A DNA stretch of 64,000 nucleotides from a virus (taxonomy: Duplodnaviria; Caudoviricetes), in the IMG/VR virus record IMGVR_UViG_2843449061_000008, positions 24,102 through 88,101 of that record. The stretch is one strand, 5' to 3'. The notes under the pieces were generated by a model. That model saw only the letters and a list, made by a program, of their open reading frames with translations. It was not told the origin of the DNA and did no database searches. The stretch's first letter is position 1; the number at the start of each line of letters is the position of its first letter. The position numbers and the translations under genes are program-made. Positions 13,719-30,575 of this stretch are shown here, piece by piece.

Positions 13719-14429
13719 ATGGCCCGTGAACGGCCCCAGACCAGCGCGAAGGAGTTCATCGACCGCTTCAACGCGCTGGGGATCGTCGGCGACGATGGCC
13801 AGCCGGTGACGGTGACGAAGGGCACCGTGTCCAAGCTGGTCAACGGGCAGGAGATGCCGCTGCTCGGCGTCACCTTCACCGTCACCATGCGCTGGCTGGC
13901 GGACAACACGGACCCGACGAAGCCGAAGTCGAAGCTGGGCACCGCGGCGCAGCGGTGGTTGAGCGGGCAGGGGCCAGTCCCAACCCCGCCGGTCCCGAAG
14001 ACTCTGGGAGAGGCGCCAACGCGTCAGGCCGAAAAGCAGCCGACCGTGGTGGTGCTGCCGATGGAGGAAGGCGCTTCGGCCGGCGGCCGGAACACGACGG
14101 TCTCCGAGTCCCGGCGTGAAAAGGAACGGCTCGACGTCGAGCTGAAGAAGCGCGAACTCGCCAAGCATGACCGCGAGCACATCCCGCGGGCCGAGGTGGA
14201 GGTGGCGGTGGATGCCGCAATTACCGAGTTCCGCGGCCAGTTCGAGGGGTTCGCCGGGCTGCTGGCCCGTCAGGTCGCCGGAAAGACCGACACCGAGGCC
14301 TACACCCTGATCCAGGCTGAGGTTCGCCGGCTACTGGAGCGGTTGAGCACGAACCTGCGGAAGGCCGCGGTCGGGCTCGTCGAGGAGATGCACGACGGTG
14401 GGGCCGTCGATGAACCGGAAGGCGAGTGA
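13719..14429 (+). CDS. terS: Terminase small subunit (helper, Nu1-like)
   Basis: SESRREKERLDVELKKRELAK...IPRAEV coiled coil typical of Nu1-type TerS; overlaps the terL start. Confidence 0.7.
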   Translation: MARERPQTSAKEFIDRFNALGIVGDDGQPVTVTKGTVSKLVNGQEMPLLGVTFTVTMRWLADNTDPTKPKSKLGTAAQRWLSGQGPVPTPPVPKTLGEAPTRQAEKQPTVVVLPMEEGASAGGRNTTVSESRREKERLDVELKKRELAKHDREHIPRAEVEVAVDAAITEFRGQFEGFAGLLARQVAGKTDTEAYTLIQAEVRRLLERLSTNLRKAAVGLVEEMHDGGAVDEPEGE

Positions 14430-16242
14430 CCTTCTCAACCGGATGGCGGCGGCTCTCGATCCGCCTCCGGAGATGGAACCCGACGAGTGGGCTGAGGAGA
14501 ACATCGTCCTCCCCAAGAAGGAGGGGATGCCCGGCCCTTATCGGATGGCCCACACGCCGCAGTTCATCCCGTTCGTGCGCGCGTTCTGGGACCCGCGGTG
14601 GCGACGCATTGTCTTCGTCTGCGGCGCCCAGGAGGGGAAGTCCAGAGCCGTCCAGGCGGTGATCGGCAAGAAGCTGGACCATGAGCCGGCGCCGGTCATC
14701 TATTACGGCCCGACCAAGACCTTCGTCGAGCGCACCATCGAGCCGCGCATCGTCGAGATGCTGAACTCCTCCAAGAGCCTGAAGGGCAAGACGCTCTGGG
14801 GGAAGAAGCAGAAGAAGACGCTGAAGATGGTCAGCGGTGCGCCGCTGATCCTGAGTTGGGCCAGTTCCGGTTCCGAGTTGGCCGGTCAGGAAGCCGCGTT
14901 GGTCTTCATCGACGAACGCGACCGCCTGGCCGACGACATCGACGGCGAGGGCGACCCGGTCGAGCAGGGCGAGGCGCGTATCGGCTCCTACGCCAACGGC
15001 AAGATCGGGATCATCTCGACGCCGAAGACCGGCGTCATCCGGAAGGAGCGGCATCCTGAAACGGGGCTGGAGCATTGGGCAATCGCCGACCTCAAGAAGG
15101 TCAACAGCCCAATCATCAAGCTCTGGTGGGAAGGTTCGCGCCACGAAATGGCGTGGCCCTGCCCAGAATGCGGCGACTACTTCATCCCGCACTCTGGACT
15201 GCTGGATTGGGACGGAAAGGCTGACGGCACGGCGACGCCCGGCCAGGCGGCCCGCACGGTCAAGATGATCTGCGGATGCTGCGGGGTCCCGATCGCCGAG
15301 GCGCACAAGGAGCGGATGTGCGATCGCATGAGGCCGGTCGCGCCGGGGCAGCGGGTGGAGCCGGATGGAACGGTGGTGGGGCCTGACCCCGACACCGATT
15401 GCTTCTCGATTTGGTCCAACGGGCTGATGTCCAAGTTTAAGTCCTGGGCCAAGCTGGTTCGGCGGTGGCTTTCCGCGCTGGCGTCCGGTGAGCCTGGGAA
15501 GGTGCAGGGCGTCGTCAACACGGGCTTCGGCGAACTGCACGCCGTCTCGGGCGACGCCCCGAAGCACTCCGCTGTCACGGACTGCAAGCTGCCCTACAAG
15601 CGGGGGCAGGTGCCCTACGGCGTCCAGCGGGTTGTTCTCACGGTCGACGTGCAGAAGCGCGGCGTCTATTGGGTGATGCGCGGGTGGGGCGCCCGGCGGG
15701 AATCCTGGCTGATCGACTACGGCTACCTGCCGGGCGAAACCGACGGCGCCGAGGTCTGGGACGAGCTGGAAGGCATCGTCCGGGCCGCTCTGCCCGGCAA
15801 CACAGGCGTCAACCTGCTGCTGATTGACTCCGGCTACCGGCCCGGCAAGCCGGCGGTGGTTCCGGAGAACGCCGTCTACGATTTCTGCCGGCGGTTCAGC
15901 CGCTCGTTCGCCCGGCCCATCAAGGGCGAGCGGTACCTGACCGGCAACAAGTGGTTCACCACCACGGACAACGACGTCGACAGCCGGGGCAGGGTGCGGA
16001 AATCCGCAGGCCTGATCCTGCACCGCCTCAACACGCACGAGTTCAAGAGCCGCGTGTTCGAGAAGATCACGCGGCGCAAGGAACTGGCTGGCGGCTGGCA
16101 TGTGCCGGAGGACGTCGACGACGCTTATGCCAAGCAGATCGTGTCGGAGACCTGCCGGTGGGTGGGTGGCAAGCCGATCTGGGACGAGTTGGGCGCCAAC
16201 CACTACCTCGACTGTGAGGTGGTCCAAGCGTCTCAGAGCTGA
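14410..16242 (+). pseudogene. terL: Terminase large subunit, lambda gpA family (helper), interrupted at codon 602 by the nested element; 610-aa truncated product
   Basis: Walker A GAQEGKS, Walker B VFIDERD, CPECG zinc motif and LTVDVQK nuclease motif. Ends abruptly at NHYLDCEVVQASQS*. The native tail lies at 33724-33922. Confidence 0.9.
16208..16214 (+). other. attL core TCGACTG
   Basis: Identical to 33717-33723; flanked symmetrically by the inverted repeat ACCAC...GTGGT. Confidence 0.85.
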
Positions 16243-16268
16243 AAATACCAATTTCAGAACAATGCATT

Positions 16269-16300
16269 AGGCCCTCTCGGACCCCTCCGGAGGGCCTTTG
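16269..16300 (+). terminator. Strong hairpin just inside attL
   Basis: AGGCCCTC(t)CGGA-cccc-TCCG-GAGGGCCT followed by TTG. Confidence 0.6.
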
Positions 16301-16383
16301 TGGTCGGTAAAATCCACGTAACCGTCCGCGCCGATGATGCCGAATGGAATCAATGACTTAGGGCGCGGGCGCGGCAACGCCGC

Positions 16384-16413
16384 GACACATGAGTGACACA
16401 AGGATGACGCAAG
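16384..16413 (+). repeat. Integrase arm-type repeats (left arm)
   Basis: GACACATG 16384, GACACAAG 16395 and GACGCAAG 16406 at 11-bp spacing. AGTGACACAAGG recurs at 33657-33668. Confidence 0.7.
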
Positions 16414-16432
16414 AGAAAGGAGCCATCCCACC

Positions 16433-16717
16433 ATGAATCGAGCCTCCAACACGCCGTCCGGCGGACAGATGCTTTACGGCTACAGAGCGATTGCCGGGCA
16501 TCTTGGACTAACCGAACGGCAGAGCAAGCACCTTGTCGAAACGGGCCGTCTGCGCTTCCCCGAAGACGGGGTGGAAGGGGACGTGTTCAAGGTCGGGCAT
16601 GTCGTCTGCGCCCTGGTCTCCAGCCTGGAACGATGGAAGGAGAGGGCGGCCCGCGGCGAGCTGAGCGCCGAGAAGGAACCCGGCCATGAGCACTCCCCTG
16701 AAGGCGAGGACGCCTAA
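16433..16717 (+). CDS. Excisionase/AlpA-like winged-HTH protein
   Basis: LYGYRAIAGHLGLTERQSKHLVETGRL...FKVG; AAAGGAG RBS; first gene after attL. Confidence 0.65.
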   Translation: MNRASNTPSGGQMLYGYRAIAGHLGLTERQSKHLVETGRLRFPEDGVEGDVFKVGHVVCALVSSLERWKERAARGELSAEKEPGHEHSPEGEDA

Positions 16718-16740
16718 CCCCTCCTCCCTGTAGGCCAGCC

Positions 16741-17226
16741 ATGACGCGCAAGCCCGCCAGCTTCAAGCACAAGGACGTGAACAGCCCGCCGGAACCGTTC
16801 GTGTGGATCTCGGCTGCGCTGCTTGTGTCCCCGGCATGGCGTGCGCGGTCGATCAACTGCGTGCGCTTGATCGAGTTCTTGCAGAAGGAGCACATGGCCC
16901 ACGGCGGGAAGGAGAACGGCAACCTCGCGGCACCCTATGACCAGCTTCAGGCATGGGGGATCGGGCGGCGCCTGATCCGTCCGGCCATCGAGGAGGCGGA
17001 GACCCTGGGGCTAATTGCGGTGCGCCGGGGCGGGAAGCGCAACGCGGTGGAGGATCATGTCAGCCGCTACCGGTTGACCTTCTACCCATCCCGCATCGTG
17101 CCCACGGACGGGCTCCCGCATTGGGAAGCGCCGACCGATGAATGGAAGCGCATCACGCCCGAGATGGCCGAAGAAGCCACCTGCCGGGCCTCGTCGAAAA
17201 TTAGGGTCTCAGGTTCACCTTCGTGA
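16741..17226 (+). CDS. Putative wHTH replication initiator of the satellite
   Basis: PFVWI...LL.SPAWR..S....RLIEFL..EH..HGG.ENG.L..PY...GI....I..AI.E...LGLI pattern; iterons begin inside its last codons. Confidence 0.6.
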   Translation: MTRKPASFKHKDVNSPPEPFVWISAALLVSPAWRARSINCVRLIEFLQKEHMAHGGKENGNLAAPYDQLQAWGIGRRLIRPAIEEAETLGLIAVRRGGKRNAVEDHVSRYRLTFYPSRIVPTDGLPHWEAPTDEWKRITPEMAEEATCRASSKIRVSGSPS

Positions 17227-17332
17227 ACCGTCTCAGTTCACCTTCGTGAACTCCCTCAGTTCACCTTCGTGAACTTTTGGCGGGCGCAAACCCAGCAAAT
17301 CCGCCACCTGGGTAAAGTTCACCTTCGTGCAC
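17213..17332. repeat. Satellite origin iterons GTTCAC-CTTC-GTGAAC
   Basis: Exact copies at 17213, 17236 and 17259 (23-bp period) and a one-mismatch copy at 17317. Confidence 0.85.
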
Positions 17333-17492
17333 TCCTTCTAATATCTTGGGTGTATCCCCCGAGAAATCGGCACCTGCCGATCACCATCACCACCACCCGC
17401 CGCCGACAGGCGGCGCACTCGGAACCGGCCCTGGTCCTGACGACCTCCGCCGCCGGCCCCGCCTTCATCCCTTCACACCGGAGACCTTCGCC

Positions 17493-17744
17493 ATGTCGAG
17501 TCCCGACACGGACAGCATCATCGCGACCATTCCGAAGAATGCGACGGAAGAGGTTCGCATCACCCTGACCAGCTACAACGGCCATCCGCTCGTTGATCTG
17601 CGGACCTTCGTTGAATACCGGACGACCGGTGAGTCCGGCCCGACCAAGAAGGGGCTGACGGTCGCTGTTGCGCTGCTCCCCGCCATCATCTCCGGCCTTC
17701 AGGATGCCGAGGCTGAAGCCCGCCGCCGGGGGCTGTTGCCATGA
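17493..17744 (+). CDS. PC4/p15-like single-stranded DNA-binding protein
   Basis: IATIPKNATEEVRITLTSYNGHPLVDLRTF...PTKKGLTV matches the PC4 fold; GGAGA RBS. Confidence 0.8.
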   Translation: MSSPDTDSIIATIPKNATEEVRITLTSYNGHPLVDLRTFVEYRTTGESGPTKKGLTVAVALLPAIISGLQDAEAEARRRGLLP

Positions 17745-18043
17745 CCCGCGATTCCATCATCGCCGCCCTGGTCAGTCGCAGCATGACGGCCAGCGCCGGC
17801 CCGGTGGAGAAGGCCGCCCGGTATCACGAAGTCGCCGCCGCGGTGAACGCCGCCGGACGCTACGCCGCACCGGCCCTGATGCTGGTGCAAGACGCTGAAG
17901 GCGACGTGCTGGCCGCTTTCGCCGCGCAGGTCGATGCGCTCCGCAGCACCGAGCCGAAGGCCAGCCCTGCACCCACTCCCGTCATCCGCCCGTCATCCTG
18001 GCGCCGGGAGATGGCGCGCGTCGTCAACCCGAGAGGATTGTGA
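17741..18043 (+). CDS. Hypothetical protein (100 aa)
   Basis: Overlaps the upstream stop by 4 bp. Confidence 0.55.
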   Translation: MTRDSIIAALVSRSMTASAGPVEKAARYHEVAAAVNAAGRYAAPALMLVQDAEGDVLAAFAAQVDALRSTEPKASPAPTPVIRPSSWRREMARVVNPRGL

Positions 18044-18044
18044 A

Positions 18045-18242
18045 ATGGACCGCATCGAAGCCCTGACTTTGCTCGCCGCCCCGCTGCTCCGCCAGCGCCG
18101 GCCCGTTCGGCTGTCTCGCATCAACGCCGGCTTGGTCGCCGCCGGTCATGCGGAGACCACGGTGGAGGAATTGGCAGCGCTGGCCCGGCCCGTGTTGGTC
18201 GCGGGCTGCACCGAGGAAGACGAGACTGAAGCGCTGGCGTGA
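18045..18242 (+). CDS. Small hypothetical protein (65 aa)
   Basis: ATG 1 bp after the upstream stop; GAGAGG RBS. Confidence 0.5.
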   Translation: MDRIEALTLLAAPLLRQRRPVRLSRINAGLVAAGHAETTVEELAALARPVLVAGCTEEDETEALA

Positions 18243-18346
18243 CCGTGGAGGGGCTTGTCGGGTTCGCGGGCTATCTCCGGACCCTCGCGCGGCAGACCGC
18301 ATCCACGGGCCTTCTGAGCTTTAGCTAAGGGCCATCGGGAAAGGCA

Positions 18347-18395
18347 CGGGTCCTTCCGGGGCGATTCTACCGGGGGTGGCCCCCGCCTCAGCACC
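18347..18395 (+). promoter_or_regulatory. Putative satellite cos site (cosQ-like GGGTCCT at 18348-18354)
   Basis: CGGGTCCTTCCGGGG followed by symmetric C-GGGGGTGGCCCC-G (18371-18384), about 90 bp upstream of terS. Confidence 0.65.
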
Positions 18396-18474
18396 TCTCC
18401 AGGCACGAACCGTCCTTGGGGGTTCCTGATCCGCCTCCCGTCAGCAAATTTTCCTACCGACAAGGATCTTCGGA

Positions 18475-18963
18475 ATGGCGACACAAACCGAAGTCGGGAA
18501 GCATCTCGACCTGTCCGACCGCTCCGTGCGGGAGTTGCTGGAGCGGGGAGTCCTGCCGAACGCTGCCCGCGGCGCCCTCGACCTCGACTGGTGCCGAACC
18601 TCCTACATCCGCCATCTGCGGGAAATGGCCGCGGGCCGGGCGACCGGGCCGGCCGGTGACGACCTGACCAGCGAACGCGCCCGACTGGCCCGCGAACAGG
18701 CGGACAACATCGCCCTGAAGAACGCGGCGCTGCGGAAGGAGCTGCTTCCACGCTCCGACATCACCCGCGCCGTGGTCGCGGCGTTCCAGATCGTGCGCGA
18801 CCGGCTGTCAGCCCTGCCGGCGCGGCTGGCTGGGCCGCTGGCCGCGACCACCGATCCGGCGGAAGTGCGCGGGCGGCTGAGCGACGCGGTGAACGGCGTG
18901 CTGGTGGAGCTGAGCGAAACGCGCGTTGTCGCCACCGTCGAGGAGCCGGCTGATGCGGCTTGA
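18475..18963 (+). CDS. terS: Terminase small subunit (satellite, Nu1-like)
   Basis: MATQTEVGKHLDLSDRSVRELLERGVL wHTH; DLTSERARLAREQADNIALKNA coiled coil. Confidence 0.88.
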   Translation: MATQTEVGKHLDLSDRSVRELLERGVLPNAARGALDLDWCRTSYIRHLREMAAGRATGPAGDDLTSERARLAREQADNIALKNAALRKELLPRSDITRAVVAAFQIVRDRLSALPARLAGPLAATTDPAEVRGRLSDAVNGVLVELSETRVVATVEEPADAA

Positions 18964-20848
18964 CCTTCCTGTGTCCGAGCTGGTGGCGGAAACGGCGACT
19001 GGGTGGTTCCCGGCGCTGCGGCCGGCGCCGCGGTTGTCGCTGGCCGAATGGGCGGAGCAACACGCGCGCCTCTATGACGGTGGCGCCTTCAGGCCCTACG
19101 CCTATCAACGGGCGATCCTCGACGCGATGACCGACCCGGCGGTGCGCCGAATCACGCTCATGAAGTCGGCGCGCGTCGGCTACACGCAAATGCTGTCGGC
19201 GGCGCTGGGCTACTTCGTTGCGCAGCGGCCTTCCAAGATCATGGTGGTTCAGCCCACCACCGAAGACGCCGAGGACTACAGCAAGGACACCATCGATCCC
19301 TTGGGCGAATGGCCGGTGCTGGCCGGGCTGCTGTCCGAGGTGAAGGCCAAGACCAAGGGCAACACCATCAAGCGCAAAGCCTTCCCCGGCGGTTCGCTGC
19401 GCATCACCGGGGCGAACAGCCCACGCGCCTTCCGCCGCATCGACCTCGACGTGCTGCTGTTCGACGAGGTGGATGGCTATCCGCCGATGGCCGGGAAGGA
19501 AGGTGACCAGATCGCGTTGGGCCTGAAGCGCCTGACGCAATCGCTGCATCCCTTGGCCGTGCTGGGGAGCACGCCGCTTCTCGACGGGGAAAGCAAGATC
19601 GCGGACGCCTTCGCGGCCGGGACCATGGAGCGTTACCATTTGCCGTGTCCCTGCTGCGGGGAGCTGCAAGCGCTGGTGTGGGGCGACGGGACCGGGCCGG
19701 GCATGCGCTGGACGGACAACGACCCGGACACCGTGCATTACGTCTGCGTCAACGGGTGCCCCTTCGGCGAGGAACACAAGCTCGACCTGCTGGAGCGCGG
19801 GCGTTGGATCGGGGAGACGCCGCGCAAGGATCATCGCAGCTTTCACATCTGGAGCGCCTATAGCCCGCTGCCCGGCGCGGCGTGGCCCGAGCTGGTCAAA
19901 GAGTTCCTGGCCGCCAAGCGCGATCGGGAAAAGCTGCAAGTCTGGACCAACACCGTGTTGGGTGAGTGCTGGGTGGACCGTGGCGAGGCCCCGGAGTGGC
20001 GGCGGTTGTACGACCGGCGCGAGACCTGGGAGCCGGGCACCGTTCCGGCCGGCGGGCTTTTCCTGACGGTCGGCGCCGACGTGCAGCGCGACCGGATCGA
20101 GGTGAGCGTGTGGGCATGGGGCCGGGGCAAGGAGTCCTGGCTGATCGAGCATCGGGTGTTGCCGGGCGATCCGTTCCAGGCGGCTGTCTGGCGCGACCTG
20201 ACTTCGCTGCTGGCGGAGACCTGGCGCCACGAAAGCGGCACCGACCTGTCGGTGATGATGACGGCCATTGACGCGGGCGACGGCGTGACGATGGAGGCGG
20301 TGAAGGCGTGGGTGCGCAACGCCGGCCCGCGCGTCATGGCGATCAAGGGCAGTTCGCTGGCGCTGGCGCCGATCCTGGGCCAGCCGTCCGCTGCGGACGT
20401 GAACTATGGCGGCCGGAAGATCGCGGGCGGGGTGAAGCTCTGGCCGGTGGGCACCAGCGCGGCGAAGTCCGAGTTCTACGGCTTCCTGCGCCTCGACCGC
20501 CCGACCGAGGAAAGCGGCGAGCCGTTCCCGGCCGGCTTCGTCCACATCCCGCAGCATGTCGGCGAAGAGACGGTGAAACAGCTCGTCGCGGAACATCGGG
20601 TGACCCGCGGCGGCAAGGGCCGGCGCAGCGTCACCAGTTGGGAAAAGCTGCGGGATCGGAACGAGGCCCTGGATTGCCGAAACTACGCCCGCGCGGCGGC
20701 GGCCCGGCAAGGGCTGGAGCGCATGAACGACCCGGCATGGTCGGAGCTGGAGCGGGCCTTGGGTGTGCCCCGTGATCCGGCTGTGCCGGTGGCCACAGCG
20801 GCGCCGACGGCGCGGCGGGTGTCCCGCTCGTCCTGGCTGTCGGAGTAG
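18953..20848 (+). CDS. terL: Terminase large subunit, lambda gpA family (satellite, intact, 631 aa)
   Basis: KSARVGY (lambda gpA Walker A), LLFDEVDGY, CPCCG, GADVQRDR and RNEALDCRNYARAA. Confidence 0.93.
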   Translation: MRLDLPVSELVAETATGWFPALRPAPRLSLAEWAEQHARLYDGGAFRPYAYQRAILDAMTDPAVRRITLMKSARVGYTQMLSAALGYFVAQRPSKIMVVQPTTEDAEDYSKDTIDPLGEWPVLAGLLSEVKAKTKGNTIKRKAFPGGSLRITGANSPRAFRRIDLDVLLFDEVDGYPPMAGKEGDQIALGLKRLTQSLHPLAVLGSTPLLDGESKIADAFAAGTMERYHLPCPCCGELQALVWGDGTGPGMRWTDNDPDTVHYVCVNGCPFGEEHKLDLLERGRWIGETPRKDHRSFHIWSAYSPLPGAAWPELVKEFLAAKRDREKLQVWTNTVLGECWVDRGEAPEWRRLYDRRETWEPGTVPAGGLFLTVGADVQRDRIEVSVWAWGRGKESWLIEHRVLPGDPFQAAVWRDLTSLLAETWRHESGTDLSVMMTAIDAGDGVTMEAVKAWVRNAGPRVMAIKGSSLALAPILGQPSAADVNYGGRKIAGGVKLWPVGTSAAKSEFYGFLRLDRPTEESGEPFPAGFVHIPQHVGEETVKQLVAEHRVTRGGKGRRSVTSWEKLRDRNEALDCRNYARAAAARQGLERMNDPAWSELERALGVPRDPAVPVATAAPTARRVSRSSWLSE

Positions 20849-20937
20849 ACGGCCGGCCCCGGCGCCATCTCCGAAGTTGAACGAATCGGCCAACAGTCCT
20901 ATGGTTAGGCAATTATACCCTATTGAGGATAATTGTC

Positions 20938-22383
20938 ATGCTGTCGGGACTGCGGCGGACCGTTGGGAACCTGTTGATCCGCAGCCTCGACGCGGCCGGA
21001 GCCGGCAAGCGCTGGGGAGCCAAGTCCCGCATGGTGAACCTGAACGCCGAGATGCTGGCCGGTGCGTCCATCGCGGCGCAGCGCGCGGCCTACTTCGCCC
21101 GCAACAACCCGAACGTCGCCGCCGCGGTGAATGCCCTGGTGAGCAATGCCGTGGGGACCGGGATCAAGCCGCGGTCCAAGCACCCCGATCCGGCGGTGCG
21201 CGATGCGCTGCACAGCTTGTGGGAGCGGTGGGAGCGGGTGGCCGATGCGTCGGGCCGGGCCGGCGGCTTCTACGCTCAACAGGCCCTGGCCGTGCGCGCA
21301 ATGATCGAGGGTGGGGAATCCTTCGCCCGTCTCCGCGCCCGGCTGCCGGAAGACGGCTTGCCGGTGCCGCTTCAGGTGGAGCTTATCAGCCGGGACCAAG
21401 TTCCCTCGACGCAGTGGCAGGAAATCCGACCCGGCAACCCGGTTCGGGCCGGGATCGAGTTCGACACGCTGGGCCGGCGGGTGGCGTTCTGGGTTCTGCC
21501 CTTCAATCCCAATGACCCCACCATGCCGGTGCTGGCGCCGACCTGGGAGCCGAAGCGGGTTCCGGCGGAGGACATGTTGCACCTGTTCCGCGAGCTGGTG
21601 GAGAACCAGCTTCGGGGACTGTCCTGGCTGGCGCCGATCCTGCTGCGCGTGAAGGAGCTGGACCAGTACGAAGACGCCGCCCTGGTCCGCGCCAAGGTCG
21701 CGGCGATGCTGGCCGGCTTCATCATGAACAAGGACGACGCCAACCCGGCTTGGCAGCCGCCGGCCAACGCCGAGACGCCGACGCTGGAACCGGGTGTGCT
21801 GGTGCCGCTGAACCCCGGCGAGTCCGTCGAGTTCACCAACCCGCCCGACGACAAGAACTATGACCCGTTCACGAAGAACCACATGCGGGCCATCGCGGTG
21901 GGGATCGGGGCGACGTACTTCCAAGTCTCGGGCGACCTCAAAGACGCCAACTACTCCAGCCTGCGCGGCGGGCTGGTGGAGTTCCGCCGCAGTGTCGAGC
22001 AGCTCCAGCACCTCACGATCATCCCGCAACTCTGCGACCCGGTATGGCGCCGCTTCGTGACGCTGGCCGTGCTGTCCGGCGCCATCGACGCGCCGGACTT
22101 CTTCCGCGACCCCGAACCCTACCTGTCCGCTGAATGGCTGCCGCCGGCCTTCGATTGGGTGGACCCGCTGAAGGACGTGCGGGCCGAAGTCGAGGCCATC
22201 GAGGCGAAGCTGAAAAGCCGGGCGCAGTCCGTCGCCGAACGCGGCTACGACGTCGAAACCCTGGACTCGCAGATCGCCGCGGACGTGCAGCGGGAACAGC
22301 GGCTTGGCCTGCCCACCACGGCGACGAAGGCCGCTGCGCCGACCCAGCCGGACGAACCCACGGAGCCCCCCGCCAATGGCTGA
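20938..22383 (+). CDS. Portal protein, lambda family (satellite)
   Basis: ARNNP..AAAV..LVSN.VGTGI, RAGIEFD..GRRVAFW, QLRGLSWLAP, YFQVSGDL.DANYSSLR and W.PPAFDWVDPLKD. Confidence 0.92.
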   Translation: MLSGLRRTVGNLLIRSLDAAGAGKRWGAKSRMVNLNAEMLAGASIAAQRAAYFARNNPNVAAAVNALVSNAVGTGIKPRSKHPDPAVRDALHSLWERWERVADASGRAGGFYAQQALAVRAMIEGGESFARLRARLPEDGLPVPLQVELISRDQVPSTQWQEIRPGNPVRAGIEFDTLGRRVAFWVLPFNPNDPTMPVLAPTWEPKRVPAEDMLHLFRELVENQLRGLSWLAPILLRVKELDQYEDAALVRAKVAAMLAGFIMNKDDANPAWQPPANAETPTLEPGVLVPLNPGESVEFTNPPDDKNYDPFTKNHMRAIAVGIGATYFQVSGDLKDANYSSLRGGLVEFRRSVEQLQHLTIIPQLCDPVWRRFVTLAVLSGAIDAPDFFRDPEPYLSAEWLPPAFDWVDPLKDVRAEVEAIEAKLKSRAQSVAERGYDVETLDSQIAADVQREQRLGLPTTATKAAAPTQPDEPTEPPANG

Positions 22384-24238
22384 CACGTTCACCCGCGCCA
22401 TGGGCGCGACCACGCCGACCACGCTCAACCGCGAGGCCCGCACCGTCGAGGTGGTGGCGCTGTCCGGCCCGGCGCCCGCCGTGCGCCCGGCGCCCGCTCC
22501 GGACGGCACCCGTTCCGCCTGGATCGAGGAGCTGGACGCGGCCGGCGCCGACCTCTCCCGGTTCCGCGGCGGCCCGGCGCTGAAGGATCACCGCAACACC
22601 ACCGACGCCGCCGTGGGCACGGTGGCGGATGCGCGAGTCGACGGTGACCGGATCACCGGAACCGTCCGCTTCGACACCAGCGCCACGGCCGCCGACCTCA
22701 TGGCGAAGGTCGAGGCGGGCAGCGTACGCGGCGTGAGCCTGGGCTACAGCGTCCAGAAGTGGCAGCGGGCCGGTAAGCGCGACGGGCTGCCCGTCTTCCG
22801 TGCCATCGGCTGGGCGCCGCATGAGCTGAGCTTTACCCCTGTGCCGGTGGATGCCGGCGCCACCGTCCGTTCCCAAGGAGGCATCATGGACGACGACCAG
22901 ACCACCACCGAGGCGGACGCCACGGCGGATACCACCACCACCGACACCAGCGCCCGCGCGGTGGACACCACCGCCAACCGGGCCGGGATCAACGGTCAGA
23001 TTCGGACGATGGTCCGCGCCGCTGGCCTGGAGATCGCCACCGCCGACCGGCTGATTGACGACGGCGCCGACCTCGACCGCGCCCGCGCCGCGGTGTTCGA
23101 CGCCATGCTGGCCCGCTCCAGCGGCCGGCCGCTCGCTGCCGTCCAGGTCCTGCACGATCACGACGATCCGGGGGCTGTGGTGGATCGCATGGCGACGGCT
23201 TTCGCAGCCCGCGCCACGGCGCACCTGCCGGAAGCGCACCGCGTCCAGATGCCGGAACAGGCCCGCGCCTATGCCGGCCGCTCCCTCCTCGACCTCGCCG
23301 CCGAGCTGGCCGACCGGCGCGGGAACCCGATCGGCACGCGGCACATGTCGCCCGCGGACCTCTACCAGCGCGCCATGACGACGGGCGACTTCCCGGTGCT
23401 GCTGGCGAACGCGGCCAACAAGACCCTCCTGCCGGCCTATCAGGCGGCGGCGCCGACCTACCGCCGGTTCTTCGCCCGGCGCGACTTCCGCGACTTCAAG
23501 CCCGCGTCGTTCGCCCGCGTCGGCGACTTCCCGGTGCCGCTGGCCGTGGGTGAGAACGGCGAGTACAAGCACGGCGCCATCAGCGAGAGCGGCGAGACGG
23601 TCACGCTGGGCGAGTATGGCCGGGTGGTCATGTTCAGCCGGAAGGCGTTGGTCAACGATGACCTGGGCGCCTTCGCCGACCTCCCGAGCAAGGCCGCCCT
23701 GCGCTGCGCCGATTGGGAAAACTCGGTGGCCTGGGCGCTGGTGGTCTCCAACCCGAAGCTGTCGGACGGCAAGACGCTGTTCCATGCCAGCCATGGCAAC
23801 CTCGCTTCCGCCGGCGGCGCCATCGACCTCGCGACCGTCTCCGCCGGCGAAGCGGCGATGATGAAGCAGACCAGCCTCGACGGGCTGAAGCTGAACCTCA
23901 AACCCGCCGTCCTGGCGACCGGGCCGGACCAGTTCACCGCGGCCCGTCAGTTCGTCAGCACCGCTGTTGCGCCGACCACGGCCGCCGCGGTCAACCCGCT
24001 GGCCGGGACGCTGACACCCGTGGGTGACGCGAACCTGCCGGGGCCGGGCTGGTATCTCATGGCCGAGCCGGCGGCGCTGGAGACCTTCGTTTACGGCTAC
24101 CTGCAGGGCCAGTCCGGGCCGATCATCACGCCCGAGCCGGGCTTCGACGTGGCCGGGGTGAAGGTCAAGCTCACCATCGACTTCGCCGTGGGCGCGGTGG
24201 ACTACCGCGGCGCCTACTTCAACCCCGGCGCGGCCTGA
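22376..24238 (+). CDS. Prohead protease-major capsid fusion (HK97-type protease plus Mu gpT-like capsid); in-frame internal start at 22886
   Basis: ALKDH, VRGVSLGY and HELSFTPVPVD protease motifs; TTGDFP.LL.N.ANK.L..AY, DFK, GEYK.G and NDDLGAF capsid motifs. Confidence 0.88.
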   Translation: MADTFTRAMGATTPTTLNREARTVEVVALSGPAPAVRPAPAPDGTRSAWIEELDAAGADLSRFRGGPALKDHRNTTDAAVGTVADARVDGDRITGTVRFDTSATAADLMAKVEAGSVRGVSLGYSVQKWQRAGKRDGLPVFRAIGWAPHELSFTPVPVDAGATVRSQGGIMDDDQTTTEADATADTTTTDTSARAVDTTANRAGINGQIRTMVRAAGLEIATADRLIDDGADLDRARAAVFDAMLARSSGRPLAAVQVLHDHDDPGAVVDRMATAFAARATAHLPEAHRVQMPEQARAYAGRSLLDLAAELADRRGNPIGTRHMSPADLYQRAMTTGDFPVLLANAANKTLLPAYQAAAPTYRRFFARRDFRDFKPASFARVGDFPVPLAVGENGEYKHGAISESGETVTLGEYGRVVMFSRKALVNDDLGAFADLPSKAALRCADWENSVAWALVVSNPKLSDGKTLFHASHGNLASAGGAIDLATVSAGEAAMMKQTSLDGLKLNLKPAVLATGPDQFTAARQFVSTAVAPTTAAAVNPLAGTLTPVGDANLPGPGWYLMAEPAALETFVYGYLQGQSGPIITPEPGFDVAGVKVKLTIDFAVGAVDYRGAYFNPGAA

Positions 24239-24240
24239 CC

Positions 24241-24456
24241 ATGGCGACGCTGGCCGACCTGATCGGAATGCGGGACGCCCTGGAGGCGGCCCGCTTCAGC
24301 GGCGTGCGCAAGGTGGTCTATGGCGACACCGAGACCGAATACAAATCCGACGCCGAAATGAAGCGGGCGCTTCTCGACCTCAACCGGAAGATCACCGCTG
24401 CCAGCGGGCCGGCCAGCTCGCCGTTCGTGACCTTCTCGACCTCGAAAGGACTGTGA
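24241..24456 (+). CDS. gpW-like head-tail adaptor (satellite)
   Basis: DALEAARFSGVRKVVYGD...EYKSDAEM..AL...STSKG. Confidence 0.8.
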   Translation: MATLADLIGMRDALEAARFSGVRKVVYGDTETEYKSDAEMKRALLDLNRKITAASGPASSPFVTFSTSKGL

Positions 24457-24458
24457 CC

Positions 24459-24803
24459 ATGCGGAACTTCGTGCAAGCCGGCTGCAACCTCGACCTCACC
24501 GCCCCGCGCGCCCTGGCGTCGGGGGAAGGTTTCATCGTCGGCGCCCTGTTCGCCATCGCCAGCACCGACGCGGCGAGCGGTGGCGCCCTGGTGGGCGTGA
24601 CCGAGGGCGTGTTCATCCTGCCGAAGAAGACGGCCGCCGTGATCGCCCTGGGCGGCCGGGTGAGCTGGGACGATGCCGTGCACCAGTGCGACGCACCCGG
24701 CGCCGGGCTCTACCCGGTGGGCGTGGCTGTGGAGGCCGCCGGCAACGGGGCCAGCACCGTGACGGTGCGGCTGGACGGCGTGAGCACTGCGGCGGCTGCG
24801 TAG
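24459..24803 (+). CDS. DUF2190-family capsid cement/decoration protein
   Basis: MRNFVQAG..LDLTAP..LASG...VGALFA.A...GVTEGVF.LPK...VSWD...VGVAVEAA. Confidence 0.8.
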   Translation: MRNFVQAGCNLDLTAPRALASGEGFIVGALFAIASTDAASGGALVGVTEGVFILPKKTAAVIALGGRVSWDDAVHQCDAPGAGLYPVGVAVEAAGNGASTVTVRLDGVSTAAAA

Positions 24804-24828
24804 GGGTCGGCAGGGGCTGGCCGAAGGG

Positions 24829-24859
24829 AAGGGGCAGGGCTGCGGTTCCGCCCCTTTTG
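24829..24859 (+). terminator. Terminator ending the satellite structural operon
   Basis: AAGGGGC...GCCCCTT stem followed by TTGT. Confidence 0.55.
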
Positions 24860-25172
24860 TATAGATGCAGCAAAGGCACCACCGAACCCTTGTAGGTATA
24901 GTAGGCTACAGGGGCGTACCTGCATTCTGACTGCATGGTGCTGACGAATCTACCCAATACCTAAACCGGATTGGTGAAAGCCTACCCTGCATAGTGCGGC
25001 GTTTGGTGTTTTCATCACTTAATGTGTTGCCTTCACAGAACCTGAGCCCAATATTAGAGAAGCCTTTGCCGAGCTGCACGACCTAAGCTGTTGGGCAAGG
25101 GAGTGGCATGATTGCTACTGTATGCTCATGTGAAAAATCAGCTTCGTTGATCAGTCAAATAAAGGTGGTGCA

Positions 25173-25364
25173 ATGGAAAATGAAATCAAGGAAGGATCGG
25201 TCGTTACGCTAAAATCTGGCGGGCCGAATATGACTGTTGCGTGGGTTGCTGAAGAATATGGAACCATCAAAGCTAACTGTGATTGGTTCGTGCAGGAGAA
25301 GGGAAGTTTTGCAAATAAGAATGCCACTTTTCCTTTGTCGTCTCTAAAGCTCTCTTCTGATTGA
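25173..25364 (+). CDS. YodC/DUF2158-family protein
   Basis: GSVVTLKSGGPNMTV...CDWF signature; AAAGGTGG RBS. Confidence 0.8.
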   Translation: MENEIKEGSVVTLKSGGPNMTVAWVAEEYGTIKANCDWFVQEKGSFANKNATFPLSSLKLSSD

Positions 25365-25531
25365 ACGGTTTGCGCCAGCTTCTCAAAGCTAGTCCATTCT
25401 GTTTTTCCCAGCCAATCACGGAACAGAATCAGGTGATGCGATTGCACATCCGAAGCTGTCCGCGATGGCCCGCCGGAACGGCATAAACAATGCTGCTACG
25501 GCGTGACATGGGCAGCAATGTTCGACCCTGG

Positions 25532-25565
25532 AGCCGGCCGGCGCGTCTTGCCCGGCCGGCTTTTC
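25532..25565 (+). terminator. Intrinsic terminator/attenuator
   Basis: AGCCGGCCGG / CCGGCCGGCT 10-bp stem plus TTT, directly before the next RBS. Confidence 0.6.
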
Positions 25566-25579
25566 TATGCGAGGTGACC

Positions 25580-25897
25580 ATGAGCAAGCCTGATTCGTCG
25601 TGCCCGGCCGTTGAGGTGCTGGACCTTCGCCTGTCGGACGGGATCGGGCAGACGCTGGCCGTTGCCGTCGTTCAGGTGGGGCCGGTGGAGATCCGTAACG
25701 TGCGGGTGACCGACCGGGACGGACGGCTGTTCGTTCGGCTGCCGGGCACCCTCATGAGGAGGCGGCTGAAGCCGGCCGTCTGCCTCGACGAGCCGGTGTT
25801 TCTGGAGCTGCGCGAAGCGGTGTTGGCGGAGTACCGGGAGGTGGCCGGGGCGGACCCGTGGGGCGACGAGCGAGGCAGCAGAACGGCAGATGCCTGA
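25580..25897 (+). CDS. SpoVG-like nucleic-acid-binding protein
   Basis: LAVAVVQVGPVEIRNVRVTDRDGRLFVRLP resembles the SpoVG core; GAGGTG RBS. Confidence 0.55.
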   Translation: MSKPDSSCPAVEVLDLRLSDGIGQTLAVAVVQVGPVEIRNVRVTDRDGRLFVRLPGTLMRRRLKPAVCLDEPVFLELREAVLAEYREVAGADPWGDERGSRTADA

Positions 25898-26032
25898 GCT
25901 GGGTGGAGAAGAGAAAAACCTATTCGATTGGAGCGGTTTGCGGTTCTATCTACAGAATTAATGTCGCTGAAAAGACGCATTTATGGTACACATAACCCCT
26001 CATGCTAGAACAAGAAACAGAGATGCACGAAA

Positions 26033-26542
26033 ATGTCTATTTACCCCATCGGTGGAGCCTCTAGCTTTGATGACATGCCCAAGGGAACGATGTTTTACGG
26101 GGAGGTGGGTGACAAGATCGTTCTTCTTTTCCGTTGTGCAAAGGTAATAAGTCAATCTACAGAAGATATCGAATACGCTGCGGTCTTCGACAGGCAAGTG
26201 ATACCGCATATCGGTAACCCTATTGTTATAGAAGGAGCTTCGTATTTTACTAACAAGTTGTTTGAGGTGAGGGGTTCTTATGTGAAGCCCGATCTTTCCT
26301 CTATGGATCTGTCCTACAATAACCCGAAGTTAGGGGATATAGTTTACTTTGAGTCCGCGGCTTACTTTGTCTTGGCGAGTGAGCGGCATGGGCGCATGTA
26401 TGTCAACATTGATACGGGATATGCGCTTGAGAACGTGAACCACGACCTGCCGCGCGCGATTTTCAGAAGATGGAGCATTGTGCAGCGGGTGTTCGACCGT
26501 GAGGAGGTGCTTTTCACTTACGAGCCTGCCCCGGCTCGGTGA
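26033..26542 (+). CDS. Hypothetical cargo protein, low GC (169 aa)
   Basis: AT-richer ORF with protein-like composition; no family recognised. Confidence 0.65.
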   Translation: MSIYPIGGASSFDDMPKGTMFYGEVGDKIVLLFRCAKVISQSTEDIEYAAVFDRQVIPHIGNPIVIEGASYFTNKLFEVRGSYVKPDLSSMDLSYNNPKLGDIVYFESAAYFVLASERHGRMYVNIDTGYALENVNHDLPRAIFRRWSIVQRVFDREEVLFTYEPAPAR

Positions 26543-26581
26543 GTGAAGCGTTCGGCCTGCCGCGGACCCGGCCGGGGCGGG

Positions 26582-26856
26582 CCTGTAACACACCTTGACC
26601 GCCCTGTGTTGCAGCCTGTAACACAGGGTGTGTTGCAGGCTGTGTTGCAGGTGATCCGCCATGGCGACCCCGACCATTTCCGTTCGCGTATCTCCAGAAC
26701 ATCAAGGGCTTGTCCGAGACGTGGCGGCCCGGCTGAAGGCCGATCCCGGCTTTGCTGACGTGCTGCGCGCCGCGCTGGGGGAGGGTGTGACACAGCCTGT
26801 CATACAGCCTGTGTTACGGCTTGGATCGCGGGGTGTGACACAGGCTGCAACACAGG
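26582..26856. repeat. Two blocks of five 11-12 bp near-palindromes (CTGT-N3-ACAG-like)
   Basis: Block 1 at 26582-26651 upstream of the 26661 gene; block 2 at 26785-26856 inside it. Examples: CTGTAACACAG, CTGTGTTGCAG, CTGTCATACAG, GTGTGACACAG. Confidence 0.8.
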
Positions 26857-27227
26857 TGGACGGCCAGACCGCTCACCAGCGCCAGCCCGCGCCCGAAGGC
26901 CAGCCCGATCCTGCGGCCGGCGCCCTGGCCGATGTCCTGCGCCGGGTGGAGGTGCTGGAGGCGCATGTTGCCGACCTCCGGGGCAAGGCTGGCCGGCAAG
27001 CCAAGGTAGCCAGCCAACAGCAACGGCTGATCGCCGCCGCGGGGCTGGAAGGCGTCATGACCCGCCTGCAATACGCCGCGCACATCGGCGTGTCCAACCC
27101 GACCCTGACGCGCTGGGTGAAGCGGGGAATGCCGGTGCAGGACGATGGGCTGCTCGACGTCGAGGCGGTGGAGAGCTGGCGGAAGGCGAACGAGTCCCGG
27201 CTCCTGGCGGAGAGGGTGAAGGGGTAG
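26661..27227 (+). CDS. DNA-binding protein: RHH-like N-terminus, coiled coil and Nu1/MerR-like wHTH C-terminus
   Basis: TISVRVSPEHQGLVRDVAARL; MTRLQYAAHIGVSNPTLTRWVKRGMPV...LDVEAVESWR. Confidence 0.6.
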   Translation: MATPTISVRVSPEHQGLVRDVAARLKADPGFADVLRAALGEGVTQPVIQPVLRLGSRGVTQAATQVDGQTAHQRQPAPEGQPDPAAGALADVLRRVEVLEAHVADLRGKAGRQAKVASQQQRLIAAAGLEGVMTRLQYAAHIGVSNPTLTRWVKRGMPVQDDGLLDVEAVESWRKANESRLLAERVKG

Positions 27228-27435
27228 GGGGGGGCGGGCCGGCGACACCGGCCCGAGCGTCTACGAGGCCGGCGTCTACCGAAACAGTTTATTAGCGATA
27301 ATTTCGAATACGTGATGCGTGTGTTTAACTGATTCTGGTATAGCAGTCGGATGCCACGTGCGATGATAAGTCGTAGTGGAGTTGTTTAAGAGGCACCAGC
27401 TGGTGTTGAATCAGTATTAAAGGAATGGGGTCGAA

Positions 27436-28173
27436 ATGGAAATAACTCGAATCGAAAAATTTTCGGAATCGCAAGATTTCGGCCGCGAGACTCCAAAATT
27501 CGAACTTGATTATTTTGGTAAAGATCTAATGGACCATAATGGTATAAAGTGGATTTATTTGATATGCCCTCATTGCGGGACGCGTGTTAAATTTTCACCC
27601 ATACATGTTGTCGTGGTTAAGGGGGAAGAGCTTGGCATGCTGACTCGTGATTACCATTATCTTTGCAAATGCGAGTATTGCAACGATGTTGTTTATGCCA
27701 AATTTTGGGAAGTCGACTTTGATCCTGATTGGCATTTCGCGTATGAGATGCATTTCCCGGCGGCTATATTCAATGGAAGCGTTGATCTGCCAGAGCAAGT
27801 CAATGTATCGTTTTCAGAGGCCACGAAGTGTTTAAACGCGGATGCCAGCTTAGCTACTCTTGTTATGTGCCGTCGCACTGTTGAAGCTATAGTAAGAGAC
27901 AAGGGGGGTTCGAGTGGTGGTGGCCTATATTCTGAAATAGATAAGTTAATCAAGGATGGCACCCTCCCTGATTCCATGGGTCGCCTTGCGAATGTTATTA
28001 GGATGGTAGGCAATAAGGGTGCGCATGCATCTGAACTTGCCACGGATAGCAAGCAGGCTAGGGATGCGTATGAACTTACGAAGAAAATGATTGATGTAAT
28101 TTATCTGGTTCCAAGGCAGGTGCATGAAATAAGGAGCAAGCTTGAACAAGAAAAATCCGTTAAAACGGAGTGA
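27436..28173 (+). CDS. DUF4145 (HEPN-like) protein with an N-terminal zinc finger
   Basis: CPHCG...CEYC; ATLVMCRRTVE; IRMVGNKGAH (R-x-x-GN-x-x-AH); low GC. Confidence 0.8.
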   Translation: MEITRIEKFSESQDFGRETPKFELDYFGKDLMDHNGIKWIYLICPHCGTRVKFSPIHVVVVKGEELGMLTRDYHYLCKCEYCNDVVYAKFWEVDFDPDWHFAYEMHFPAAIFNGSVDLPEQVNVSFSEATKCLNADASLATLVMCRRTVEAIVRDKGGSSGGGLYSEIDKLIKDGTLPDSMGRLANVIRMVGNKGAHASELATDSKQARDAYELTKKMIDVIYLVPRQVHEIRSKLEQEKSVKTE

Positions 28174-28225
28174 GGAATAATATAGGATATGCCGACTGAA
28201 TAAAGACGTAAGTAATTAGTTTTTC

Positions 28226-29257
28226 ATGATACGTCAATCAATCCAAAAATGGAGTGCTAGGCAAATGAAAGCAACAACAAGTGAGCTTCGCGTCAAAAAC
28301 CACAACGAGTGGCCCGCTGTCGAATTATTCCCCTGTGAGATTGAGCTTCTACAGAGGTTGGCGCAAAAGAATATGCAGCAAATCTTTATCACGGCTAGGT
28401 TCATGCCTGATGAAAAGGATGAACCATTTAACGCCGCAGTAGGACACATATTGGACTGTCTGGATTCCCTACCAAAACGTCCTGACGCAGCTTTTGATAG
28501 CCTATACAAGGTTATTGATAGCAACCTTGCGGAATTTTCTGAGCCCAATTTGTCCCCCATGCATAGCACTGTAAAAGCCTTTTTTTTGGCTCACCCATCC
28601 GAATGGAGCAAAATTACCGAGATCTTGTCTGCTAATTTGCCTCAGCAAACCGCAGACTACGCGGCATCGCGTATTCTCGATTGCCACGTTGATGGCGGGC
28701 TTCCCCATGCCGATGAAATAAAGAAAAGAGCCAGCAGAAGCCTAGGGAAGCAGCGCTATAAAGATTTCTGTGAAAAATATCTTGTAGAAAACCCGCAGAT
28801 GCAAGGTAGCTACAGCATGCCATACGAAAACAGGAGGAATGCTGGCCGCTTGATGAAGTTACTATTTAGATTAAAGAAATCCGGTGATTGCTCTGGCGAT
28901 GTCAGCAAAATTGAGGCAAGTGACCAGATGGGGGTGCAATACAATAGTCTGGATTTGGGGGAAGACTGCAATAGGCTTTCTTCTGATGAAAAGTTAAAGG
29001 TGATAATGGAGGCTTGTCTTTATACGTACAGAAATGAGCGCTTCCACGGAGATGCATTTTCGCCATTCAGAAGCGGAAAAGCAAAACTTAAGACGTATGC
29101 GCATGCCTATTTTATGTTGAATGCGGCTTACGTTATTGTGCTTGGCATGCTTCATTTGCAAGGGAAAGGGGGTATTTCTATTTCGCATATTGTTGAGATA
29201 ACAATTCGGTCTATGCAGCAATTCGCGGCATTCTTTGAAGATGTTGTTAACGAATAG
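28226..29257 (+). CDS. Putative HEPN-domain protein (343 aa)
   Basis: LYTYRNERFHG fits the HEPN R-x4-H motif; helical character; low GC. Confidence 0.6.
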   Translation: MIRQSIQKWSARQMKATTSELRVKNHNEWPAVELFPCEIELLQRLAQKNMQQIFITARFMPDEKDEPFNAAVGHILDCLDSLPKRPDAAFDSLYKVIDSNLAEFSEPNLSPMHSTVKAFFLAHPSEWSKITEILSANLPQQTADYAASRILDCHVDGGLPHADEIKKRASRSLGKQRYKDFCEKYLVENPQMQGSYSMPYENRRNAGRLMKLLFRLKKSGDCSGDVSKIEASDQMGVQYNSLDLGEDCNRLSSDEKLKVIMEACLYTYRNERFHGDAFSPFRSGKAKLKTYAHAYFMLNAAYVIVLGMLHLQGKGGISISHIVEITIRSMQQFAAFFEDVVNE

Positions 29258-29465
29258 AATGTCGAGGACGGTACTAGACGGCCCGTTTGTAGCTCGGTAA
29301 CTGCGGCGGCGTACTGCTGCTCCAACTCAGCCACATACGTGATGGCTTGCCTAGCCATACCCTCCAAGGCGCCGAGCCCAAGCCGCGCTGCGCGGCCTTC
29401 TGAGGGGGGCTTACGGAGTAGGGCAGGGCGGCTCATCTTGGCCGGACTGCTGGCACCCGAAAAGC

Positions 29466-29500
29466 AGAAGCCCGCCGGGTCTCCCGCGGCGGGCTTTCTT
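29466..29500. terminator. Bidirectional terminator between convergent cargo genes
   Basis: AAGCCCGCCG / CGGCGGGCTT stem with A- and T-rich flanks. Confidence 0.7.
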
Positions 29501-29625
29501 AGGGCGCTGGGTGGCGATCCAGCTGACGGTGATTGGGTTCTGTGGCGTATGGGGCAACCTGGGTTGCCCCCTCTGCCTTGGGCGCGTTGGGCGGGATTCT
29601 GAAGGTTAGTCATAGTGCGAGAAAC

Positions 29626-30114: not shown

Positions 30115-30159
30115 GCAACCTCCTTATCAATGGGTGTACTTATTACACTTAGCGCGCTA

Positions 30160-30262
30160 AGTTTTTTCAGGTGTCGATCGGGCTTCTGCAGATAGCCCCG
30201 CTCGACCAACCAAGCCTTCAACACTCGCTCGACCAGCGACGACACAGACCGGTCATCGTCCT
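30160..30262 (-). pseudogene. Orphan C-terminal half of a ribbon-helix-helix (CopG-like) gene
   Basis: A frame overlapping the repressor stop reads KDDDRSVSSLVERVLKAWLVERGYLQK and has no proper start. Confidence 0.4.
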
Positions 30263-30504: not shown

Positions 30505-30566
30505 GGCACTTTTAGTGACATTCATTGTTGACCGATGCCATCACGATATGGCACTTTTAGTGACAT
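30503..30566. promoter_or_regulatory. Twin 19-bp operators ATGGCAC-TTTTA-GTGACAT
   Basis: Identical copies at 30503-30521 and 30548-30566, each a one-mismatch palindrome, between divergent genes. Confidence 0.8.
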
Positions 30567-30575
30567 AGCAAGCGC

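Follow-up and report, generated by a model that had tools for sequence, protein, structure and literature searches.

What is a complete set of phage head genes doing inside the large terminase gene of another phage? This question is raised by a stretch of 64,000 nucleotides (hereafter the window), comprising bases 24102-88101 of the 88.1-kb IMG/VR provirus record IMGVR_UViG_2843449061_000008. Because its DNA has a G+C content of 62-72%, genes were called by third-position GC bias and afterward annotated with Pfam and PHROGs. By this annotation the prophage in the window is a lambda-like siphovirus of the Azospirillum type, which we call the helper. Its early genes stand ahead of its small terminase (TerS), and between its large terminase (TerL) and its gpW lies an insert of 17.5 kb. 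The insert had been described, in a prediction made from the letters alone (the original prediction), as a capsid-forming, tail-less satellite that takes its missing parts from the helper. In short, we arrive at a similar reading: with a probability of roughly 70%, the insert is a capsid-forming satellite that resembles those phage-inducible chromosomal islands that form capsids (cf-PICIs), has a separate ancestry, and lives in the terL gene of its own helper prophage.

Boundaries of the insert and the helper terminase

The insert extends from position 16208 to 33723 of the window, between two TCGACTG cores (Table 1). Around these cores the attachment (att) sites match imperfectly over a longer distance, with 16 of 20 bases identical between 16204-16223 and 33713-33732. 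At the left junction the helper TerL reads …GANHYLDCE and then runs into VVQASQS and a stop; at the right junction, an orphan frame 22 bp past the integrase stop reads GNYFDCE-MMQEAAAEILKF…ARMGRIPGL-stop. Two TerL homologues provide empty sites. The first (L044, 97% identical, 678 aa) reads through uninterrupted (…HYLDAEMMQEAAAEILKFRLLP…), and the second (L045, 54% identical, 674 aa) has the same tail, ending in …ARMGRIPGL. These junction reads and uninterrupted homologues show the insert to be a bounded mobile unit between the TCGACTG cores.

As long as the insert is in place, ~64 residues are missing from the end of the helper TerL. The extreme C-terminus of lambda gpA serves as its prohead-binding domain; when five residues are lost, docking is abolished (PMC4856287). 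Since portal docking is performed by this part of lambda gpA, the helper terminase is predicted to be docking-defective until the satellite excises, and helper packaging would thus depend on that excision.

Head genes, missing parts, and a twin element

The cosQ-like site, TerS, TerL, portal, protease-capsid fusion, gpW, and DUF2190 cement gene are all found where the original prediction had placed them. The satellite TerL retains a KSARVGYT Walker-A-like motif and ~56 aa past its LDC motif; it shares 25% identity with the helper TerL, and the two TerS proteins are strongly different as well. The description of TerS as Nu1-like holds insofar as the protein is a small terminase (phrog_57) with an N-terminal helix-turn-helix (HTH), but it has no match in Pfam, Nu1 included. 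The true start of the protease-capsid fusion may lie near 22376. Searches of PDB sequences with the capsid fusion, TerS, and the decoration protein gave no matches.

Upstream of terS, at 18347, lies the cosQ-like CGGGTCCTTCC, for which the right end of lambda itself has a match (ACGGGTCCTTTCCGG, at 30 nt from the lambda end). The same 11-mer occurs again at 12531, upstream of helper terS; its finding twice in the window is not significant taken alone. Among the relatives that were fetched, almost all carry GGGTCCT(T)CC ~120 bp upstream of terS. With its gpA-family TerL, lambda-family portal, gpW, and putative cos containing cosQ, the insert appears to possess a lambda-type head and packaging module.

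Equally telling is what the insert lacks. Among the 20 open reading frames (ORFs) called in it, Pfam and PHROGs recognize no tail, connector, or lysis families, and no HNH domain in any insert ORF scanned; none of the called ORFs has a transmembrane-like segment; and no FII remnant was found by tblastn with four FII proteins, which gave nothing at E <0.05 (best 0.054). The predicted lack of tail, closure (gpFII-like), and lysis genes is thus borne out by these searches. Relative to L014, FII is replaced by ~0.8 kb of lower-GC DNA. Considering this complete head kit together with the lack of tail, closure, and lysis genes, it is most probable that the satellite forms capsids of its own and relies on its host prophage for a closure protein and a tail. 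Lacking a closure gene is, however, not characteristic of the family, since five relatives (L014, L017, L036, L038, and L040) have their own ~280-aa FII/Hc1 protein, 38-50% identical to the helper FII. Two others (L034 and L022) have the Hc1-like half of the closure protein alone.

A twin of the satellite is especially informative here. Genome G010 contains a prophage that is a mosaic relative of the helper (L047-L050, G010:C2:1060001-1140000, reverse strand) and harbors two embedded satellites. Compared with the helper, its early region is 88-96% identical and its region from FII through the tail terminator, major tail, and tape measure to the tip 86-95% (FII 94%, tail terminator 91%, major tail 90%; tail DNA 86-90%), whereas its own head module is of another type, with a protease-capsid fusion. 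One of the two satellites (satB, 16.4 kb) is nearly identical to that of the window in TerS (98%), TerL (99%), portal (98%), capsid (97%), gpW (93%), and decoration protein (93%), but its integrase is only 35% identical. SatB likewise lacks FII and is flanked by a 17-bp repeat that lies within the FII gene of the G010 prophage, which it thus interrupts; the corresponding att site is present and unoccupied in the window helper, at 38949-38965. Both of these twin head-only satellites are thus found with the same FII-plus-tail module, whatever the head type of the helper or the site of integration. Such a pattern would be expected of a satellite that uses the closure protein and tail of the helper and nothing of its head. 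The predicted borrowing is supported to that extent, with the restriction that the lack of closure is specific to some members of the family. The other G010 satellite sits in the portal gene; it encodes a capsid fusion, its decoration gene is truncated, and it brings neither a TerL nor a portal.

To place the satellite among its relatives, we rely on searches with the capsid fusion, which recovered close relatives at 65-94% identity and distant ones at ~50%. These come from IMG/VR and from the genomes of Azospirillum brasilense, A. formosense, A. cavernae, A. agricola, and Azospirillum sp. A26, and further from Rhodospirillaceae metagenome-assembled genomes, Roseomonas, and Roseospira. Of the 130 species genomes of the family, 35 have a capsid-fusion homologue. 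The block of TerS, TerL, portal, capsid, gpW, and decoration gene recurs without a tail module in at least nine further elements of Azospirillaceae and relatives, and the satellite sizes in the family cluster at ~12-17.5 kb. Embedding in a helper, as for satB, is also seen with L036 (on the chromosome of Azospirillum sp. A26), a 16.4-kb element that has the same layout and lies between perfect 29-bp repeats within the gpA terL of another helper, at …FFKHVQWEK. L037 (= L020, Roseomonas), with its tape measure and tail tube, is the only true phage among the mapped relatives. In the window satellite each of the six head genes is full length, with dN/dS values of 0.07-0.61 (mostly 0.1-0.3) against eight relatives. 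In the capsid tree, the window protein falls in a clade with 100/99 support and 11 rows; six of these are tail-less elements with known bounds, and none is a known phage. Phage L037 is the first to branch within the sister clade. The recurring tail-less layout, the dN/dS values, and this tree together argue for a long-lived satellite lineage rather than a one-off decayed prophage.

The C-termini of the gpW proteins deserve a separate word, as the original prediction held their likeness to be consistent with a shared interface. The satellite and helper proteins do end in similar motifs (...FSTSKGL and ...FTTIKGT), but the (S/T)(S/T)xKG motif is kept in all 14 aligned family members, the phage L037 included, with K69 and G70 invariant. 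We therefore do not take the motif as a sign of a helper-specific interface; being invariant across the whole family, the motif reflects ancestry and not a fit of this particular pair.

Taken as a sequence of events, the proposed cycle would start with induction of the composite, upon which the satellite would excise through its integrase and Xis-like protein and restore helper terL. It would then replicate from its iteron origin, build its own proheads, and use both its own cos and its own terminase to package its DNA. The portal would be capped by the satellite's own gpW; the helper would contribute the FII closure protein and the siphovirus tail that complete the particle, and release would be via helper lysis. 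That the 17.5-kb size would suit a small (~T=4) head is our conjecture.

Other features of the insert, the helper, and the relatives

Beyond its head genes, the only possible counterparts in the insert to the primase-replicase and AlpA/MerR-type regulation module common to PICIs are the small HTH protein, the 161-aa protein with iterons, and the Rha/Ant-like regulator; relatives have D5_N/DUF5906 or AAA_25 replicases. Homologues of the Xis-like HTH protein also occur at the left end of the embedded relatives L036 and satB. The atlas look-alikes of the 161-aa protein have no known function, and its nearest named clusters are HTH_36. The small protein S_135 was tried as a hidden connector and rejected, as its language-model look-alikes are SpoVG-like small proteins instead (a lead only). 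The C-terminal HTH of the 188-aa protein resembles the N-terminus of small terminases (phrog_57), and short GTGTGACACAG-type repeats (26626-26855) overlap the start of its gene. Within the cargo, the DUF4145 protein (27436-28173) matches the model of the anti-phage defence PD-T7-4 (E 6e-13); at the equivalent place relative L014 has a TIR-domain gene.

On the helper side, a single ORF with internal repeats (43755-53483) encodes a presumed tape-measure protein of 3242 aa, which is exceptionally long. The likely helper origin (11634-11929) has ~10 copies of TGTCCCATAGGACA at a spacing of 22 bp and comes after a 733-aa protein (9411-11612) with DNA polymerase III beta (sliding clamp) domains. A tRNA-Arg reported by ARAGORN at 10306-10396 sits within a long ORF and was discarded as a false positive.

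Table 1 Features of the helper prophage and its insert, in window positions
Feature	Position	Strand	Remarks
Helper TerS	13719-14429
Helper gpA-type TerL	14398-16242	+	cut to 614 aa by the insertion; uninterrupted homologues 674-678 aa
attL core TCGACTG	16208-16214		in last codons of helper terL (…HYLDCE/VVQASQS-stop)
Small HTH protein, Xis-like	16433-16717	+	first gene of insert; phrog_18541
161-aa protein	16741-17226	+	candidate iteron-binding initiator (lead only); no Pfam/PHROG match
Candidate satellite origin	17212-17338		four copies of 23-bp iteron AGTTCACCTTCGTGAAC; repeat family D8
Two small conserved genes (100, 102 aa)	17741-18242	+	ahead of cos/terS in relatives too
Putative cos	18347-18390	+	cosQ-like CGGGTCCTTCC, then G/C-rich segment
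TerS	18475-18963	+	phrog_57, E 6.5e-29
gpA-type TerL, 640 aa	18926-20848	+	GpA_ATPase 1.7e-57, GpA_nuclease 5.5e-94, both profiles nearly full length
Lambda-family portal	20923-22383	+	Phage_portal_2, 3.9e-94; 37% identical to helper portal
Prohead protease-major capsid fusion	22304-24238	+	phrog_4523 "major head and protease protein" 1.4e-165; Phage_capsid_4 3.1e-46
gpW-type head-tail adaptor (Ad1), 71 aa	24241-24456	+	phrog_2545, 2.2e-17
DUF2190 decoration/cement protein	24453-24803	+	PF09956 4.2e-20; phrog_122
Lower-GC filler	24804-25579		at place of FII in relatives L014, L017, L040
Small conserved protein	25580-25897	+	in relatives located after FII; language-model features are SpoVG-like (lead only)
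188-aa protein	26661-27227	+	conserved in relatives; C-terminal TerS/MerR-like HTH
Low-GC cargo, three genes	27436-30114		including DUF4145 protein
Regulatory module	30629-32381	+	Rha/Ant-like regulator and 175-aa protein
Tyrosine integrase	32499-33695	+	last gene of insert, downstream end, pointing outward
Displaced helper TerL C-terminal tail	33707-33922	+	reads …EMMQEAAAEILKF…ARMGRIPGL-stop
attR core TCGACTG	33717-33723
Helper gpW	33934-34143		same phrog (phrog_2545) as satellite adaptor
Helper lambda-family portal	34149-35687
Helper S49 protease	35706-37304
Helper major head protein	37332-38468
Helper head-closure protein	38804-39643	+	FII domain and Hc1-like domain; predicted borrowed part
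Helper siphovirus tail module	39619-58878	+	terminator, major tail, 3242-aa tape measure, tip genes

Several relatives are worth a short description of their surroundings. Upstream, L031 has a primase-helicase (D5_N/DUF5906), and ~1 kb past its decoration gene stand host genes of the ABC-transporter and GGDEF-EAL kinds; in L014, L034, and L040 a host GGDEF-EAL gene follows at 3-5 kb. All four of these chromosomal relatives thus adjoin a host GGDEF-EAL gene, which suggests a common attachment locus; ahead of that gene, three of the four (L014, L034, and L040) have an ORF weakly resembling "T7 capsid assembly". A P4-type integrase lies 1.8 kb past the decoration gene in L017, and host-like genes follow in the tail-less L038. 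In L015 (6422-8110), L016 (11466-13154), and L032, all otherwise tail-less, the gene directly past the decoration gene encodes 562 aa and includes part of a TMP_2 (tape-measure) domain, and L018 (7447-10509) has a TMP_2 protein of 789 aa as well as a gene homologous to the pre-tape-measure gene of the helper. No free satellite genomes, in the form of circular or terminally redundant contigs, were found among the whole-contig relatives.

Relatives of the integrase (L006, L009, L007, and L008) are also found within phage packaging and head genes or next to them. The ~10-kb element L006, which has a TerS-like gene alone, lies within a gpA terL near residue 105, and L009 has an HK97-type capsid and a Rha-like gene, within a Terminase_1-type terL. 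In L042 (Roseospira goensis), the gpA TerL match ends near the LDC motif and the portal lies ~4.6 kb away; the gap holds small genes, mostly on the opposite strand, and may be another insertion at the 3' end of terL.

Known satellites, rival explanations, and meaning

The original prediction described cf-PICIs as having HK97-type head modules with both adaptor and connector genes, and published descriptions agree: these are elements of 10-18 kb (prototype EcCIEDL933), of three independent origins, with a recombinase, regulation and replication modules, adaptor and connector genes, and an HNH-dependent terminase, without lysis genes or a complete tail, and with HK97-like capsids that were shown to be T=4 (bioRxiv 10.1101/2022.09.08.507074, 10.1101/2025.02.11.637232; PMC10085698 for the SatelliteFinder cfPICI model). 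The window satellite resembles them in its size, its integrase (a tyrosine integrase, 32499-33695), its defence-type cargo, its own TerS, TerL, portal, protease, capsid, and head-tail adaptor, and its lack of tail and lysis genes, with a predicted need for helper tails. Unlike the cf-PICIs, on the other hand, it uses Phage_capsid_4, Phage_portal_2, GpA_ATPase with GpA_nuclease, gpW, and DUF2190 instead of HK97-type and HNH proteins, and pairs TerS with a gpA-type TerL without HNH. It has the gpW/Ad1 adaptor, but no FII, Hc1, or other connector was found by Pfam, PHROGs, or tblastn. Further differences are that no primase is recognized, the integrase is downstream, the host is of the Azospirillum type (Alphaproteobacteria), and the element is embedded in a helper late gene. 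Given the different Pfam families, its capsid and TerL are unlikely to belong to any of the three published cf-PICI clades. As the satellite lacks the HNH and connector features and uses other protein families, we treat it as an independent lambda-type origin, in support of the predicted distinct satellite type with a lambda/gpA head module.

Helper-embedded satellites (HE-PICIs) have been surveyed only in Enterobacteriaceae (Tommasini, Mageeney & Williams 2023, PMC10111431). Their zones are ordered as Integration (int and AlpA, upstream and inward), Bro, Replication (primase), and Late (PMC10111431). The window satellite shares with them the insertion in a helper late gene (the 3' end of terL, as the empty sites L044 and L045 confirm), which exact excision would restore. 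Related integrases likewise retarget late genes, here the 3' end, middle, and 5' part of terL, the portal, and FII. In contrast to HE-PICIs, its integrase is the last gene and faces outward, neither AlpA nor a primase was detected, and it has a complete head and packaging set; HE-PICIs are not described as self-sufficient capsid formers. The same head-module families are also found in siphophages, namely the Rhodobacter RcOceanus/RcDormio group, Vibrio phage VP882, and the uncultured Roseomonas prophage L037. The gene order of L037 is that of the satellite (TerS, TerL, portal, protease-capsid, gpW, decoration), followed by FII. These siphophages differ from the satellite in their size of 37-42 kb and their tail tube, tape measure, and lysis genes (L037 for the tail), and their capsid proteins are 33-52% identical. 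In the literature library searched, there was no paper on Azospirillum satellites or on alphaproteobacterial capsid-forming satellites. What is new, then, would be a variant that combines capsid formation with helper embedding, each of which has been published separately (cf-PICIs and HE-PICIs).

Critically speaking, a number of points weigh against our reading. The whole case is built on sequence and comparison. Helper and satellite have cos cores so similar that exclusive packaging is not guaranteed. Genomes of 37-42 kb, as just mentioned, are those of the closest cultured phages with a head of this type, so the satellite might fill full-size heads with multimers. Pfam and PHROGs recognize no primase or replicase in the insert. 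For gpW, the AlphaFold model (mean pLDDT 75) has a helix/beta-hairpin/helix with a disordered tail, and Foldseek against the PDB gave nothing significant (top row a phage Chi neck chain, E 0.9); a wide VIA-align search returned generic helical matches alone (Z <=5.6), and a profile search of PDB sequences had lambda gpW on top, not significantly (E ~0.5). With no significant structure match, the claim to a gpW fold derives from PHROGs. Lastly, a helper-borne FII beside FII-less chromosomal relatives was found in none of three genomes: G007 and G017 have no match to the FII query, so that a resident FII donor may not be universal, and the sole FII match in G048 lies on a second satellite (on the contig of L040).

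How do the rival explanations fare? A small lambda-like phage within another prophage might have lost its tail and lysis genes and left head genes that are relics forming no particles, an outcome that the original prediction itself had named as contrary to its claim. The prophage-like, outward-pointing integrase, the lack of a recognized replicase, and the clean replacement of an FII gene that the closest relative L014 keeps would all suit such decay. We nevertheless find it improbable, given six full-length head genes under purifying selection and a tail-less layout that recurs in those further, independent elements of ~12-17 kb, which carry satellite-type replicases (D5_N/DUF5906, AAA_25) and defence cargo and form deep clades in the capsid tree. 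The element could also be a functional mobile head-module cassette and no parasite, serving as an alternative head and packaging set or as an intermediate of head exchange, and not packaging itself in small capsids. Two related helpers do differ exactly by a swap of their head modules while having early and tail regions in common, the G010 helper has a head module of the satellite's type, the cos core is common to helper and satellite, and the presence of the element inactivates helper terL. To this explanation we give little credence as well, for an integrase, att sites, an Xis-like gene, iterons, and a cos all belong to the element itself, its relatives sit in the chromosome without an adjoining phage, and a composite packaged from cos to cos would far exceed the genome size of the helper.

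A further alternative keeps the satellite but changes its particle: two or three genome copies might be packaged in full-size (T=7-like) heads, or the helper terminase might package the satellite via the shared cos core, with no exclusivity based on size. No size-determination factor is obvious, and both the genome sizes of the nearest phages with this protease-capsid fusion and the similarity of the cos cores speak for it. Yet known capsid-forming satellites make T=4 heads that fit 10-18 kb genomes, and the satellite sizes in this family cluster in that range; packaging by the helper is countered by the strong difference between the TerS and TerL proteins of the two partners. This, too, we rate as unlikely, and a capsid-forming satellite that borrows its closure protein and tail is the reading that we prefer.

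Joining all of this into a single picture, we would put even odds on an Azospirillaceae satellite lineage that arose independently of the cf-PICIs from the head modules of gpA/lambda-type siphophages and that resides in the late genes of its own helpers. In this picture, near-identical satellites swap integrases (terL versus FII), and FII-less members need the closure protein of the helper, one of them interrupting that very FII. Excision would then gate head completion for both partners and, in the window, restoration of the helper terminase's predicted portal-docking tail.

Capsid-forming satellites have so far been of one mechanistic type (HK97/HNH), in Enterobacteria, relatives, and Firmicutes. 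If our reading is true, a lambda-type module has given rise to head-only satellites anew, in Alphaproteobacteria associated with plants; the genus concerned is non-pathogenic and can be cultivated. How satellite and helper divide their labour could then shift, with the closure protein either carried or borrowed, and capsid formation would be combinable with embedding in a helper late gene. The twins in terL and FII of helpers with one tail module would offer a natural experiment on which helper part ties a satellite to its helper.

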